Assembly: GCA_045653225.1 (NCBI GenBank)
Contig: JAZOLP010000093.1
Span: 1 to 25,844 of the forward strand
Direction: 5' to 3'
DNA: 25,844 bases
From: Bacilli bacterium
Lineage (GTDB): Bacteria > Bacillota_I > Bacilli_A > ML615J-28 > CAG-313
Within the stretch, counting starts at the first letter, position 1; each line of letters starts with the position of its first letter. This document shows, piece by piece, positions 2,186-6,926 of this stretch. Under the pieces are notes generated by a model. It was not told the origin of the DNA. It ran no database searches and saw nothing but the letters and a program-made list of their open reading frames with translations. Both the position numbers and the translations under genes were made by a program.

Positions 2186-2725
2186 ATGTCAAAAATGTTA
2201 ATTGTAATTGATATGCAAAATGATTTTGTAACAGGTAGTCTTGCAAACCCAGACGCACAAGCTATTATACCAAATATTCAAAAGAAAATTGAAGAATATA
2301 AGAAGAATGGTGATGATATTATCTTTACAAGAGACACTCATACAGTTTCTTATTTAGGTAGTGCGGAAGGTCAGAAACTTCCTGTTGAACATTGTATTGA
2401 TGGAACAAAAGGTTGGGTAGTTGTTGATGAATTAAATCATCCAGAGTATAAGCATATTAACAAATCAACTTTTGGATATCCTTATTGGGGATATGAAGAA
2501 ATGCCAGAAGAAGTAGAATTAGTTGGTACTTGTACAGATATCTGTGTTGTTTCAAATGCTATTCTTATTAAAACACATTTTCCAGATACAAAAATAGTTG
2601 TCGACGCGGCGTGCTGTGCGGGTACCACTCCAGCAAATCACACAGCCGCGCTGATGACAATGAAAGCTTGTCAGATAGATGTAATTAACGAAGGTAATAC
2701 TGTTATAGGCGGAAAGAGAGAGTGA
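2186..2725 (+). CDS. pncA: nicotinamidase / isochorismatase-family cysteine hydrolase
   Basis: The N-terminus MLIVIDMQNDFV and the catalytic-Cys motif GTCTDICV fit the isochorismatase fold. The gene sits immediately upstream of pncB. Confidence 0.75.
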   Translation: MSKMLIVIDMQNDFVTGSLANPDAQAIIPNIQKKIEEYKKNGDDIIFTRDTHTVSYLGSAEGQKLPVEHCIDGTKGWVVVDELNHPEYKHINKSTFGYPYWGYEEMPEEVELVGTCTDICVVSNAILIKTHFPDTKIVVDAACCAGTTPANHTAALMTMKACQIDVINEGNTVIGGKRE

Positions 2726-2731
2726 AGTATA

Positions 2732-3925
2732 ATGATGAAATTAAGTCCTATTGTTGTATCTTTATTAGATACTGATTTATATAAATTTAATATGAATATG
2801 GTAATGTTTCATAAACATACCAATTTAAATGGTGTATATATTTTCAAATGTAGAAATGAAAACATTGTATTTACTTCTGAAATGGTAGAAGAAATTAACG
2901 CACAGATTGATCATCTTTGTACTTTAAGATTTACAGGCGAAGAATTAAATTATTTAAATTCATTAAGATTTATGAAATCTGATTATATTGAATTTCTTCG
3001 CTTATGGCACCCACTCCGCGACTATGTAAAATGTTGCGCGGACGGCAAAGGTGGCTTGTTTTTAGAAGTAACTGGTCCGTTATTTAGTGCTATGCAATTT
3101 GAAATTTATTTACTTGAAATTATTAACGAAGTTTACTTTCGTATGCAATATAACTATTTAGATTTAATAGAATCCGCAAAAGAAAAACTCGAACTTAAAT
3201 TAAAAGGTTTTGAAGAAGGTAAATATAATTTTAATTTCGCAGAATTTGGTTGCCGCAGAAGATTAAGCAGAGAGTGGCAGGATTATGTTTTATCAAAGCT
3301 TCTTACAACTGGACATTGTGTTGGTACTTCAAATGTTTATCTTGCTATGAAATATAAAGTTAAACCTATTGGTACTTATGCACACGAGTATGTTCAAATG
3401 TATCAGGGTATCCCGGGTGTAACTCTTGCCTATACAAATAAAATGGCAATGGAAGAATGGTTTGATGAATTTCAGGGTGACAACGGTACAGCTTTAACAG
3501 ACACTCTTGGAACAGATTTATTCTTAAGAGACTTTAATAAATTACAGGCTATGTGCTATACAGGAGTAAGACACGATAGCGGAGACCCAATAGAATGGGG
3601 TAATAAAATAATTGACCATTATATTAAACTCGGTATCGATCCAAAAACTAAAACTTTATTATTTAGTGACAGTCTTAATTTTGATAAGGCTCAAGAAATT
3701 TATGATTATTTCAAAGATAAAATAAATGTAAGCTTTGGTATTGGAACTTATTTAAGTAATGATACAAATGTTGATGCATTAAATATTGTTATTAAATTAC
3801 AGTATGTAAATGGACATCCAGTAGCAAAGATTAGTGACACACCTGGTAAAGCAATGTGTCAGAATAATGTTTATTTAAAATACTTAAAGAACGCAGTAGC
3901 GTATAGATTGGAGGAGAATATTTAA
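2732..3925 (+). CDS. pncB: nicotinate phosphoribosyltransferase
   Basis: It is collinear with E. coli PncB: LLDTDLYKFNM, FGCRRRLSREWQ, VGTSNVYLA, TYAHEYVQ, ALTDTLGTDLFLRDF, RHDSGDPIEWG, KTLLFSDSLNFDKA, SFGIGT, LNIVIKL..NGHPVAKISDTPGK. It is 397 aa, like PncB and unlike the larger Nampt. Confidence 0.85.
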   Translation: MMKLSPIVVSLLDTDLYKFNMNMVMFHKHTNLNGVYIFKCRNENIVFTSEMVEEINAQIDHLCTLRFTGEELNYLNSLRFMKSDYIEFLRLWHPLRDYVKCCADGKGGLFLEVTGPLFSAMQFEIYLLEIINEVYFRMQYNYLDLIESAKEKLELKLKGFEEGKYNFNFAEFGCRRRLSREWQDYVLSKLLTTGHCVGTSNVYLAMKYKVKPIGTYAHEYVQMYQGIPGVTLAYTNKMAMEEWFDEFQGDNGTALTDTLGTDLFLRDFNKLQAMCYTGVRHDSGDPIEWGNKIIDHYIKLGIDPKTKTLLFSDSLNFDKAQEIYDYFKDKINVSFGIGTYLSNDTNVDALNIVIKLQYVNGHPVAKISDTPGKAMCQNNVYLKYLKNAVAYRLEENI

Positions 3926-4482
3926 TGACAGGAGTAATTTTATTTCGTGCGCAACCATTTCACAATGGACATTTACATATGATTAAAAAGGCTTGTCAAG
4001 ATATGTATCAAATAAATGGCGCATTATATATTTTAGTGGGTAGCGCAGATAAAGTAGGAACAAAAAGAAATCCAATTCCAATTGACTTAAGAATTAATAT
4101 GATAGAGGAAAGTTTAAAAGAAGCTTTAACAGAAGAAGAATATAATTGTGTTTTTGTTTATCCTCTTGCTGATTTAGACGATGAAGCCAATAATACTCAT
4201 AGTTGGGGTAGTTATCTTTACAAAGCTATGCGTGAAGTTTCCGCAGACGAAGATTTTATTATCTACTATAGCGACAACCCAAACATTATGTTAAGTTGGT
4301 TTAATGATGAAATTAGAGAACATATTGCTTTTAAATTTTTACCAAGATATGATGATATTTGTGCGACAGAAGTGCGCAAATGTATTGAAAAAGATTGGTC
4401 AGCAACTCTTTCTACTATTGTACCTGCTCCAGTTTATAATAGAAGAAAATTATTAAAAAAATATATTGAAGAAGGAAAATAA
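3925..4482 (+). CDS. nicotinamide/nicotinate mononucleotide adenylyltransferase (HxGH cytidylyltransferase-like, NadM/NadR type)
   Basis: ILFRAQPFHNGHLHMIK carries the (H/T)xGH nucleotidyltransferase signature in the NadM/NadR context GRFQPFHxGH. The gene lies between pncB and nadE. Confidence 0.7.
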   Translation: MTGVILFRAQPFHNGHLHMIKKACQDMYQINGALYILVGSADKVGTKRNPIPIDLRINMIEESLKEALTEEEYNCVFVYPLADLDDEANNTHSWGSYLYKAMREVSADEDFIIYYSDNPNIMLSWFNDEIREHIAFKFLPRYDDICATEVRKCIEKDWSATLSTIVPAPVYNRRKLLKKYIEEGK

Positions 4483-4484
4483 TA

Positions 4485-5255
4485 ATGAATATAGAAAAAA
4501 CAAAAAGAGAGATTGTTCAATGGATTAAAGACTGGTTCGCGGAAAATGGACCAGATTGTAACGCGATTATTGGCATTAGTGGCGGGAAAGATAGCTCTGT
4601 CGCGGCCGCCCTTTGCGTAGAAGCTCTGGGCAAAGATAGAGTTTATGGTATTATGATGCCAAATGGCAAGCAAGTGGATATAGATGATTCTTATAAGATT
4701 TGTAAACATTTAGATATTCCGTGTATGACAGCAAATATTGAACCTATCTATAGTACTTTTGTAAAAGCCATTACTTATAATGACGCACATTGGTTTAATG
4801 GAAAATGGAATGTTCTTATACCAGGTGGACTTTCTGAGCAGGCAGAAACAAACCTTCCTCCCCGTATTCGTATGACCACACTCTATGCTATCTCTCAATC
4901 TCTTAATGGTAGGGTAGTTTGTACAGATAATCTTTCAGAATCATATATAGGTTATTCTACTCGTTGGGGAGATAATGTAGGTGACTTCGCGCCTCTTGCT
5001 CATTTAACAAGTGAAGAAGTTGTTGCTCTTGGCGATGCTTGCGGCCTCCCGTACGAATTAACACACAAAACCCCAACAGATGGACTTTGTGGAAAAACAG
5101 ATGAAGAAAATTTTGGTTTTACATATGAAACATTGAATAAGTATATTTTAACGGGACAGTGCGAAGATACAGAAGCAAAAGAAAAAATAGATGCAATGCA
5201 TTTAAAAAATGCTTTTAAATTAAAACCTATTCCCGCGTATATCCCACATAGATAG
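4485..5255 (+). CDS. nadE: NH3-dependent NAD+ synthetase
   Basis: It has the PP-loop IGISGGKDSSVAAALC (SGGxDS), and its length and collinearity match NadE. Confidence 0.85.
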   Translation: MNIEKTKREIVQWIKDWFAENGPDCNAIIGISGGKDSSVAAALCVEALGKDRVYGIMMPNGKQVDIDDSYKICKHLDIPCMTANIEPIYSTFVKAITYNDAHWFNGKWNVLIPGGLSEQAETNLPPRIRMTTLYAISQSLNGRVVCTDNLSESYIGYSTRWGDNVGDFAPLAHLTSEEVVALGDACGLPYELTHKTPTDGLCGKTDEENFGFTYETLNKYILTGQCEDTEAKEKIDAMHLKNAFKLKPIPAYIPHR

Positions 5256-5267
5256 GAGTGAACAAGT

Positions 5268-5717
5268 ATGAAAGTAATCGATAGTTTTGAAGGCGAGTTT
5301 GAATTTTTAAGTAACTTTTTTTATAGTCCGCTATACTTTGCTGGTATTTGGTTTTCAACAGTAGAGCATTTCTTTCAAGCTAATAAATTATTTTCAAAAA
5401 ACGAAGAAATGTTTTATAAAATTGCTACTGCAGACACTCCTGGTAAAGCAAAAAGATTAGGTAGAAAATGTGAATTGCGCGAGGATTGGGATAACATAAA
5501 AGATACAGTTATGTTAATTGCTTTAAGAAAAAAATTTAGCAATTCTGTGTTAAAAAAGAAGTTACTTGCTACTGGCGATGCGCTCTTAATAGAAGGCAAT
5601 ACCTGGCACGATAACTATTGGGGCGATTGTAAATGTGAAAAATGCAAAGATATAAAAGGAGAGAATAGACTTGGACAGCTTTTAATGCAAGTAAGAGAAG
5701 AGTTGAAAAATAAATAA
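5268..5717 (+). CDS. NADAR / YbiA-like (DUF1768) domain protein
   Basis: FLSNFFYSP...FSTVEHFFQA...GNTWHDNYWG match the YbiA/NADAR family signature E..FLSNF ... W..N.WG. Confidence 0.65.
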   Translation: MKVIDSFEGEFEFLSNFFYSPLYFAGIWFSTVEHFFQANKLFSKNEEMFYKIATADTPGKAKRLGRKCELREDWDNIKDTVMLIALRKKFSNSVLKKKLLATGDALLIEGNTWHDNYWGDCKCEKCKDIKGENRLGQLLMQVREELKNK

Positions 5718-5762: not shown

Positions 5763-6926
5763 ATGATAATCAATGACAAAAGAGCTTTAGCTTATACTGC
5801 ACGAGTTGGAGAAATTTCAAAAATCGAAGGCGCAGACAATATCGAGCTTATCACAGTTTTAGGCTGGAAAGTTATTGCTAAAATCGGAGAGTTTAAAGAA
5901 GGCGACCTTTGTGTTTACTTTGAAATCGATTCAAAGCTACCAGAAGCAGAATGGTCAGAGTTTATGAGAGCAAGACACTTTAAAGTTAAAACTATGAAAC
6001 TTGGTAAATTTAAAGTGATTTCACAGGGTTTAGCTTTACCTGTATCTGCTTTTGATAAAACAATACCGACAGAAGAAGGCATCGATGTTACAGAATTACT
6101 TGGAGTTACTTATTCTGTAGAAGAAGATAATGTTCGTAAATCAAACGGAGATCCAAATGTTAAGTATCGTTCTATGGCGGCCCGCCATCCAAAATTATTC
6201 AAACAGCCTTGGGCAAGATGGATGATGAGACGCGCGTGGGGTAGAAAGGTTATGTTTCTTTTCTTTGGTAGAAAAAAAGATAACCCTAAAAAATTCCCTT
6301 CTTTTGTTTCTAAAACAGATGAAGAAAGAGTTGAAAACCAGCCTTGGAGAATAGGCGATGGTCAGACATATTTATGCACAGAAAAACTCGATGGTACATC
6401 TTGTACTTACGCTCTTGAAAGAAAAGGTAGAAATAGATTTGAATTTTATGTTTGTTCAAGAAACATAAGACAGAAAGATGAAAAACAGTCTTGCTACCAC
6501 GACCATAATATTTACTGGGATTTAGCTTTTAAATATAATATCGAAGAACATTTAAAAGATTACCTTAATATTCACAAAGATTACAAATGGGTTTGTATTC
6601 AGGGCGAAGGTGTTGGCGCTGTTCAGGGCAATCCACTTAAATTAAAAGAAGATGACTTATATGTGTTTAACTTTATTACTTCTAAAAATGGTAGACACAA
6701 CTCTTTTGAAGGAAGAGATATTATAGAAAGCTGGAAAATGAAATGGGTTCCAATCCTTGGTCAGGTTCAGATGCCAGATACTATGGAAGAACTCAAAGAA
6801 CTTGCTACTGGTAAATCAGTAGTTAACCCAGATGTAATGAGAGAAGGTCTCGTATACAGAACAATGGACGGAAAAGATTCATTTAAAAATGTTTCAAGAG
6901 AATATTTATTAAAACATAATATGTAA
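5763..6926 (+). CDS. ATP-dependent RNA ligase (nucleotidyltransferase superfamily)
   Basis: It has the lysine-adenylylation motif CTEKLDGTSC (KxDG). The N-terminal region resembles an OB/tRNA-binding-like domain (GADNIELITVLGWKVIAK) of the Pab1020/DRB0094-type RNA ligases. Confidence 0.7.
   Translation: MIINDKRALAYTARVGEISKIEGADNIELITVLGWKVIAKIGEFKEGDLCVYFEIDSKLPEAEWSEFMRARHFKVKTMKLGKFKVISQGLALPVSAFDKTIPTEEGIDVTELLGVTYSVEEDNVRKSNGDPNVKYRSMAARHPKLFKQPWARWMMRRAWGRKVMFLFFGRKKDNPKKFPSFVSKTDEERVENQPWRIGDGQTYLCTEKLDGTSCTYALERKGRNRFEFYVCSRNIRQKDEKQSCYHDHNIYWDLAFKYNIEEHLKDYLNIHKDYKWVCIQGEGVGAVQGNPLKLKEDDLYVFNFITSKNGRHNSFEGRDIIESWKMKWVPILGQVQMPDTMEELKELATGKSVVNPDVMREGLVYRTMDGKDSFKNVSREYLLKHNM

Follow-up and report, generated by a model that had tools for sequence, protein, structure and literature searches.

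We analysed a stretch of 25,844 nucleotides (nt) (contig JAZOLP010000093.1 of GenBank assembly GCA_045653225.1, catalogued as Bacilli bacterium; positions 1 to 25,844 of the forward strand; hereafter the window), in which a gene for a NADAR domain protein stands directly behind a set of genes for NAD+ synthesis. The NADAR gene is an open reading frame (ORF) that runs from ATG to TAA and spans exactly positions 5268..5717 on the + strand, stop codon included; it encodes 149 amino acids that form a single core domain without an N-terminal extension, and a Shine-Dalgarno-like GGAG lies about 9 nt 5' of its start codon. The window has a GC content of 33%, and its plausible genes are all on the + strand. 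Upstream of the NADAR gene, four tightly packed + strand genes (2186..5255) make up a complete nicotinamide-to-NAD+ route: a pncA-like nicotinamidase of the isochorismatase type (2186-2725; profile match), pncB (2732-3925; NF003704, 483 bits), an archaeal-type adenylyltransferase for nicotinamide mononucleotide or nicotinic acid mononucleotide (NMN/NaMN; 3925-4482; profile match) and an NH3-type nadE (4485-5255; PF02540, E = 1.2e-49; TIGR00552, 166.6 bits). The spacings between these genes are 6, -1 and 2 nt, followed by 12 nt between the end of nadE and the NADAR start, so the first-pass annotation of this DNA, which was made from the letters and a list of ORFs, was right to place the gene directly after nadE.

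Profile searches assigned the protein to the NADAR family. Pfam NADAR (PF08719, DUF1768) was matched with 103.5 bits and E = 1.9e-29 (gathering cutoff: 35.1), with protein residues 11-147 aligned to profile positions 10-163 of 163; TIGR02464 was matched with 102.5 bits (cutoff: 73.7) and phrog_1017 with E = 8e-44. The search against a NADAR hidden Markov model (HMM) had been proposed in the first-pass annotation as the check on its assignment of a NADAR/YbiA-like domain, and the assignment was borne out by these HMM matches, by the fold and by the active-site residues. An AlphaFold2 (AF2) model computed with 43 homologues reached a predicted local distance difference test (pLDDT) score of 96.1 and a predicted template modelling (pTM) score of 0.89. 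Foldseek aligned this model to the solved structures of Escherichia coli YbiA (2B3W; template modelling (TM) score: 0.83) and of a P. nicotianae NADAR in complex with ADP-ribose (8BAU; TM score: 0.79), and to no other solved structure below E = 1; model and structural matches together give the YbiA-like alpha-helical core fold of the NADAR superfamily. Sequence search against the Protein Data Bank (PDB) likewise returned YbiA as the best match (E = 1.5e-19) and the oomycete NADAR behind it (E = 5.5e-11), and no chain of the G. lovleyi DarG1 NADAR domain at E ≤ 0.01.

The family is large (18,060 representatives at 50% clustering with E ≤ 1e-3), and relatives in cultured phages amount to 532 records, all below 60% identity; a megablast search for nucleotide-level relatives among cultured phages returned none. 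A 98%-identical protein was found in an ENA metagenome (P0001). Against the closest sequenced relative (locus L026; 77% protein identity), the ratio of nonsynonymous to synonymous substitution rates (dN/dS) was 0.23. On the strength of the HMM matches, the confident NADAR fold and this ratio, the NADAR gene is genuine and under purifying selection.

Active-site residues were mapped by alignment to the 8BAU sequence, and their conservation was counted in 155 related sequences; residue roles were taken from Schuller et al. (PMC11543638) and Mikolcevic et al. (PMC12945103). The two motifs named in the first-pass annotation are both present, FLSNFF at residues 13-18 (5304..5321, +) and GNTWHDNYWG at residues 110-119 (5595-5624). 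S15 and N16 of the former are invariant (155/155), and its conserved Ser occupies the position of the substrate-cleft Ser of NADARs (PMC12945103 section 2.5). The segment VEHFFQANK carries E33 and K40 (5364..5387, +), each conserved in 155/155 sequences and aligned with E43 and K50 of the P. nicotianae NADAR, of which the first positions the distal ribose and the second binds the pyrophosphate (PMC11543638). The second motif is preceded by E109, so that residues 109-119 (5592..5624, +) hold E109 (155/155), D115 (155/155) and W118 (154/155); by alignment E109 is the catalytic Glu (E125 in P. nicotianae, E167 in SCO5665), and D115 and W118 correspond to the ADP-ribose contacts D130 and W133. With W74 in the place of W89, the set E43, K50, W89, E125, D130 and W133 of P. 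nicotianae is thus matched by E33, K40, W74, E109, D115 and W118, all invariant or nearly so in the 155 relatives, and alignment summaries of 44- and 43-sequence subsets agree.

The residue at the catalytic position separates the NADAR subfamilies, being Glu in the YbiA and "NADAR" families, Asp in DarG1 and His in the T4 type (PMC12945103). E109 (in LIEGNTW) shares its alignment column with the Glu of 8BAU (LYEAS) and with that of YbiA (LVE-HTE), and by its sequence the protein is a core-only, Glu-type NADAR. It does not belong to the T4 type (PF08010), given the Glu at this position and PF08719 as the sole family at E ≤ 0.01, nor to the DarG1/BC4488 family, given the same Glu, a domain that begins at about residue 10 of 149, and nadE and an RNA ligase gene as neighbours. 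Comparison with defence collections gave 65.7 bits to the NADAR-family anti-phage protein DS32_2 (NF053876), which is below the cutoff of 240, and a weak match only in PADLOC (PDC-M42C, 58.8 bits).

Directly after the catalytic W-H-D-x-x-W-G motif the protein carries a clade-specific insert, in which C121-x-C123-x-x-C126 joins H114 as a putative Zn site (5607..5645, +). Among the 155 relatives H114 is conserved in 146, C121 in all, and C123 and C126 in 152 each; the combined motif was found in 112 of the 150 best family representatives, and the His co-occurs with the Cys triad (236/239 versus 8/24, counts that are phylogenetically non-independent). The motif is missing from YbiA, the P. nicotianae NADAR (8BAU), the NADAR of phage Bas32 (NADAR-Bas32) and that of Xanthomonas phage Seregon, and is present in the NADAR of the 735-kb phage LR756501. 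Next to the active site, the insert probably forms a structural Zn site. A text search of two NADAR structural papers for the words "zinc" and "cysteine" returned neither.

The association with the NAD+ genes was then followed across phages. The adenylyltransferase of the cassette is NadM-like and not NadD-like, and therefore either order of the amidation and adenylylation steps is possible. No terminator-like site was seen on the + strand between nadE and the NADAR gene, in a scan whose promoter and terminator counts did not exceed those of shuffled sequence and are uninformative; the layout is compatible with one transcription unit, from which the five genes would be co-expressed. Related cassettes occur in 61 IMG/VR phage loci, with either PncB or a NAMPT-like protein of 500-585 amino acids as the phosphoribosyltransferase. 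NadE is directly followed by NADAR at L026 (NADAR 77% identical to that of the window), L030-032 (61%) and L092/098 (51%), and also in phage contigs binned with metagenome-assembled genomes (MAGs) (L110, L118 and L160; 47-55%), and this adjacency is kept whichever phosphoribosyltransferase is present. At five further loci (L001, L003, L057, L105 and L116) the NADAR gene lies within a few genes of NAD genes in other arrangements.

Except for the short contig L026, the loci with direct NadE-NADAR adjacency carry the same downstream block (metallophosphoesterase, AAA_33 kinase, phosphoesterase, Band7), and they therefore represent one lineage, of gut phages of about 120-200 kb, in which vertical inheritance can explain much of the adjacency. 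NADAR followed by this block is the most constant neighbourhood in the relatives, including those that lack NAD genes: at L004/006/007, L027-029 and L108/109 the NADAR gene precedes the block, a vault-like protein is encoded upstream, and no NAD gene lies in the 4-8 kb flanks. Locus L081 has the cassette and the downstream block without NADAR, and among the 61 nadE-anchored loci a NADAR gene was found near nadE in two (L057 and L092), by both tblastn and a clade HMM. Because of these two-of-61 counts, of L081 and of the sister phages without nearby NAD genes, the idea that NADAR is an obligate part of the cassette was rejected; it is a separable accessory gene often found beside the cassette, and not a component of it. 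The first-pass description of the gene as appended to the NAD+ cassette thus holds for its position directly after nadE, whereas the gene is separable and the adjacency is confined to one phage lineage. The check for co-occurrence with pnc and nad genes in related phages, which the same annotation had proposed, gave this mixed answer, and the argument that it had drawn from position to role starts from a correct position and from a link looser than it assumed.

Elsewhere the genes after nadE are heterogeneous. Their largest group is a NUDIX protein that overlaps the nadE stop (L062-L072 and L090); this protein (202 amino acids; PF00293, E = 8.5e-14; about 8710-9330 in these loci) takes the slot of NADAR in a PncB-NadE phage lineage and is another kind of enzyme for processing ADP-ribose or nucleotides. 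A Tad2-like protein (Thoeris anti-defence 2; PF11195, E = 3.4e-08) was seen at most three genes after a phage nadE in one of 74 cluster representatives. Metallophos, NAPRTase, Thg1, AAA_33 and NUDIX recur beside NADAR in a set of 18 dereplicated phage loci; at 68 genomic NADAR loci that are not phage-like, the recurring neighbours or fusions are DSPc, SLOG (YAcAr and DNA_processg_A), rhodanese and an ADP-ribosylglycohydrolase (ARH). Riboflavin genes and ADP-ribosyltransferases (ARTs) are absent from the 25 most frequent neighbour Pfam families, in phage and bacterial relatives alike. These patterns match those described by Iyer, Burroughs, Anantharaman and Aravind (2022; PMC9503650 section 3.4.3), who reported phage NADAR genes near NAD+ salvage (NadM/NadV), RNA repair and SLOG, Macro or phosphatase partners.

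DNA identity between the window and L026 is patchy, at 95-100% in pncB, the adenylyltransferase gene and both ends of nadE, about 60% in 4651-4924 and 73-88% in the NADAR gene. This mosaic divergence suggests within-gene recombination. Protein identities to L026 (99% and 95% for PncB and the adenylyltransferase versus 75% and 77% for NadE and NADAR) had raised the possibility that nadE and NADAR move as a recombination module apart from the other two genes; it was rejected because the DNA identity is 95% at both nadE ends and falls to about 60% only in 4651-4924.

The remaining genes of the window, all on the + strand, include several with a possible part in RNA repair. An RNA ligase (PHA02142 OB domain and RNA_ligase; 5763..6926; PF21189, PF09414; phrog_968, E = 5e-63) begins 45 nt 3' of the NADAR gene, and a NinI-like metallophosphoesterase (8084..8752) follows, whose counterpart in related phages stands directly after or close downstream of NADAR. 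A polynucleotide kinase (PNK)-like P-loop kinase (13279-13764; AAA_33) and a phosphoesterase (13757-14359) form a pair (13279..14359; phrog_505 and phrog_547) that in the relatives belongs to the downstream block, as does the Band7/flotillin protein (14372-15862). Upstream of the NADAR gene lie a Thg1-like C-terminal fragment (98-472) and a DenV-like pyrimidine-dimer DNA glycosylase (1008-1466; PF03013). RNA-repair-like genes are thus scattered around the NADAR gene (the Thg1-like fragment, RNA ligase, NinI-like phosphatase, PNK-like kinase and phosphoesterase).

An 815-amino-acid protein resembling the major vault protein (9842-12289), with shoulder, Vault_3 and SPFH-like regions, is distinct from the Band7 protein; it is about 51% identical to its counterparts in sister phages and 44% identical to that of phage LR756501, where it lies near the NADAR gene. 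A PIN-PhoH fusion protein (16740-17960) lies, like the DenV-like glycosylase, in the accessory region, with an endolysin found by domain scan further downstream. Neither ART, Macro nor riboflavin-pathway domains were found in the scanned ORFs of the window. A protein with SLH and papain-like peptidase domains (8825-9820; domain matches) suggests a host with an S-layer, and phage-like contigs of the lineage (L105, L110, L116, L118 and L160) were binned with MAGs of gut Clostridia (Acutalibacteraceae, Agathobacter and Ruminococcus). Both are hints at the host and not proof; these large gut phages probably infect Clostridia.

The closest characterised relative of the window protein is NADAR-Bas32, with 74 of 148 residues identical (50%; E = 4e-43) over the full length and with an intact active site. 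NADAR-Bas32 neutralises the guanine-DNA ADP-ribosyltransferase DarT1 in E. coli (Johannesman et al., PMC11257639 section 9) and lifts the plating of DarTG1-sensitive phages by several logs, with no effect for DarTG2 (PMC11257639). Every NADAR tested hydrolyses ADP-ribosylated guanine (G-ADPr) on DNA and RNA, and the Glu-type NADARs (NADAR and YbiA families) also remove the cytosine adduct (C-ADPr), which the Asp and His types do not (PMC11125620, PMC11833690, PMC12945103). The window protein has Glu at the catalytic position, not Asp or His, and is therefore predicted to de-ADP-ribosylate guanine and probably cytosine. The reading that we favour, by a modest balance of probability, is that it works as an ADP-ribosyl N-glycohydrolase, freeing guanine, and probably cytosine, in phage DNA or RNA from ADP-ribose, that it counters DarT1-like or pierisin-like toxins of the host, and that it is expressed together with the NAD+-rebuilding cassette. 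We infer the substrate, the counter-defence role and the co-expression, whereas the reading frame with its family and fold, the conserved residues, the purifying selection and the gene order are results described above.

Under this reading K40, R63/R66, W74, K78 and W118 would hold the diphosphate of ADP-ribose, and E33 and E109 its distal ribose; E109 would catalyse hydrolysis of the N-glycosidic bond between ribose C1'' and the exocyclic base nitrogen, yielding free ADP-ribose and the restored base. The predicted substrates are G-ADPr and probably C-ADPr in single-stranded DNA and RNA. In the phage, the enzyme may act in counter-defence, in the manner of an orphan antitoxin, against ARTs of the host (DarT1-like, or pierisin/ScARP/YarT-like), and the cassette, probably co-expressed, would counter defences that deplete NAD+; the surrounding region is rich in RNA-repair genes. 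The first-pass proposal that the protein removes ADP-ribose adducts and counters ART-based defences remains the best-supported account, in view of the 50% identity to NADAR-Bas32, the cleavage of G-ADPr by the tested NADARs and the lack of riboflavin genes in the window and among the most frequent neighbour families. Also in favour of the reading are the dN/dS of 0.23, the operon-like packing with the NAD genes and the recurrence of the NadE-NADAR adjacency in relatives with NADARs 47-77% identical to that of the window.

Several observations weigh against this account. YbiA and T4 gp30.3 failed to rescue DarT1 toxicity in phage-free E. coli (PMC11125620), and in-vitro activity on G-ADPr is generic to NADARs and no predictor of protection in vivo. 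The window protein is without the basic N-terminal extension that is thought to bind single-stranded DNA in DarG1 (PMC11543638). Its His/Cys3 insert is absent from the characterised homologues, and its specificity could therefore differ from theirs. No ART gene was found in the window or in the 25 most frequent families beside related NADARs, and an ART partner near the NADAR gene, considered as a candidate, was rejected on the same counts. SLOG domains, DSPc and rhodanese phosphatases and an ARH stand beside bacterial relatives of the clade or are fused to them, a pattern that has been read as processing of soluble ADP-ribose derivatives (PMC9503650).

This last pattern bears on a second explanation, which we hold to be possible but doubtful, that the protein acts mainly on soluble low-molecular-weight N-glycosidic conjugates of ADP-ribose (signals of the cyclic ADP-ribose (cADPR) or His-ADPR type, ADP-ribosylated nucleotides or toxic NAD-derived by-products) and eliminates such a signal or toxin, with the cassette meanwhile regenerating NAD+ from nicotinamide. 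Such a role was argued from genomic context for phage Macro, NADAR, SLOG and Nudix proteins (Iyer et al., PMC9503650 sections 3.4.3 and 3.7.4). It would agree with the SLOG (YAcAr, DNA_processg_A), DSPc, rhodanese phosphatase and ADP-ribosylglycohydrolase genes that flank or are fused to bacterial relatives, with the NUDIX hydrolase directly after nadE in sister cassettes, which fits an ADP-ribose-processing enzyme riding with NAD synthesis, with the Tad2-like domain among the post-nadE genes at one locus and with the lack of a nucleic-acid-binding extension. No NADAR, however, has been shown to cleave an immune signal, and the demonstrated substrates are base-linked ADP-ribose (nucleic acids and nucleotides) and riboflavin intermediates. 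The known Thoeris signals of the glycocyclic ADP-ribose (gcADPR) type are ribose-ribose (O-glycosidic) linked, a linkage that makes their cleavage by an N-glycosidase unexpected. The closest characterised homologue, moreover, acts on DNA in vivo (PMC11257639).

The genes around NADAR are also open to a third explanation, in which the enzyme is the base-de-ADP-ribosylating arm of a phage RNA-repair toolkit and clears G-ADPr and C-ADPr from tRNA, rRNA or mRNA hit by RNA-targeting ARTs, beside the Thg1-like enzyme, RNA ligase, PNK-like kinase and phosphoesterases. This seems unlikely to us, for all that the window has the RNA ligase 45 nt downstream together with the Thg1-like fragment (98-472), the NinI-like phosphatase, the PNK-like kinase and the phosphoesterase, that NADAR, metallophosphoesterase, AAA_33 kinase and phosphoesterase form the most constant block even where NAD genes are lacking, that Thg1 and RNA ligase recur near NADAR, and that NADARs reverse ADP-ribosylation of guanosine and cytidine on RNA (PMC11833690, PMC12945103). 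NADARs are inactive on ADP-ribose at phosphate ends (PMC11833690), the Tpt1/KptA-type products that are tied to RNA repair; no NADAR-sensitive anti-phage system that ADP-ribosylates RNA bases is known; the target of CmdT is adenine N6, and a partner specific to CmdT undoes this modification (PMC12945103 table); and the shared neighbourhood may be merely an early or accessory gene region.

A further proposal, which we put forward as a speculative and rather improbable extension, is that the His/Cys3 clade is specialised for a substrate other than G-ADPr in DNA, such as an ADP-ribosylated nucleotide or an immune signal in the form of soluble, N-linked ADP-ribose. In this phage lineage it would then make up, together with pncA-pncB-NMNAT-nadE, an operon with two prongs, one clearing the NAD-derived adduct or signal and the other regenerating NAD+ from the nicotinamide set free. 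If true, phages would have a fourth, uncharacterised type of module for NAD+ counter-defence, equipped with its own partner for processing ADP-ribose.

It is very improbable that the protein serves, like YbiA, against metabolite damage, as an N-glycosidase for reactive intermediates of the riboflavin pathway, even though its score exceeds the cutoff of TIGR02464 ("riboflavin biosynthesis intermediates N-glycosidase"), YbiA is the best PDB sequence match (E = 1.5e-19; 37% identity in the structural alignment) and the active site is of the Glu type, for that model covers the generic domain only, YbiA itself also hydrolyses G-ADPr and C-ADPr (PMC11125620, PMC12945103), a lytic phage has no obvious need for such a function, and no RibA/RibD fusion or neighbour and no rib-family domain was found in the scanned window ORFs or the 25 top neighbour families. 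The first-pass annotation had likewise set riboflavin metabolism aside.

Counter-defence by freeing DNA or RNA bases from ADP-ribose, the favoured reading, would place the gene in a recently recognised class, the phage NADARs that serve as orphan antitoxins against DNA-ADP-ribosylating toxins. The gene adds large gut phages, with Clostridia as their probable hosts, to the Bas32-like Glu-type branch. In the window such an enzyme is found, as a natural case, closely behind all the genes of a nicotinamide-to-NAD+ route; should the pairing be functional, a single transcription unit would answer two NAD+-consuming defences, ADP-ribosylation as well as the depletion of NAD+. A large NADAR clade without a solved structure is marked by the insert, YbiA, the P. 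nicotianae NADAR and NADAR-Bas32 all being without it, and the clade is a reasonable target for work on structure and specificity. None of these findings overturns current understanding.

Among known systems, NADAR-Bas32 is the nearest. Its gene was located as bas32_0066 in Escherichia phage IrisVonRoten (Bas32, T5-like), and it is likewise a core-only, phage-encoded, stand-alone orphan of 149 amino acids with E, K, E, D and W in the corresponding active-site positions, from a gene in an early or metabolic region as in the window. It differs in having G instead of H114, a loop six residues shorter and a single Cys without CxCxxC, and its gene lies among nrd, thyA and rnhA and not beside NAD genes; its neutralisation of DarT1 is demonstrated, whereas the activity of the window protein is predicted from sequence. 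That the T5-like NADAR adjoins NARP3 genes was considered and rejected, as it sits among nrdAB, thyA and rnhA.

E. coli YbiA (2B3W) is the best match among solved structures (TM score 0.83 and 37% identity in the structural alignment) and shares the catalytic Glu and the "naked" core fold; it lacks the His/Cys3 insert, is a housekeeping gene in a LexA-controlled operon, has a reported role as an N-glycosidase of riboflavin intermediates and gave no protection from DarT1 in vivo (PMC11125620). T4 gp30.3 (AdfN) is also an orphan phage NADAR of the same overall fold family and an anti-DarTG1 factor, but it has a catalytic His where the window protein has Glu, removes G-ADPr only (PMC12945103) and is specific for T-even modified DNA; the T4 type is too distant from the Bas32 type to be linked by BLAST or PSI-BLAST (PMC11257639). 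DarG1 (BC4488 family) shares the superfamily and the chemistry, hydrolysis of guanine-N2 ADP-ribose, and differs in its catalytic Asp, its basic N-terminal beta-beta-alpha extension and its adjacent darT, none of which the window gene has.

The cassette matches none of NARP1 (Adps and Namat), NARP2 (Nampt and Nmnat) and NARP3 (PnuC and NadR). The original NARP preprint does not contain NADAR, and the NARP3 paper has it solely in the form of the anti-DarT factor AdfN; it is therefore no component of the NARPs described in those two papers. Related layouts are those of Iyer et al., with NADAR beside phage NAD+ synthesis genes, and of Li et al. (2024; PMC11662467), who found pncB-nadD-nadE clusters, of the Preiss-Handler type, in gut jumbo phages. 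NADAR goes unmentioned by Li et al., and Iyer et al. (PMC9503650) mention neither pncA nor nadE, whereas the window pairs the four-gene pncA-pncB-NMNAT-nadE route with a NADAR gene directly after nadE, an arrangement mentioned in neither. Published work already covers the domain, its occurrence in phages, the NAD+ salvage genes near it and its role in counter-defence; the pairing with the pncA-pncB-NMNAT-nadE route and the His/Cys3 insert are modest additions to them.

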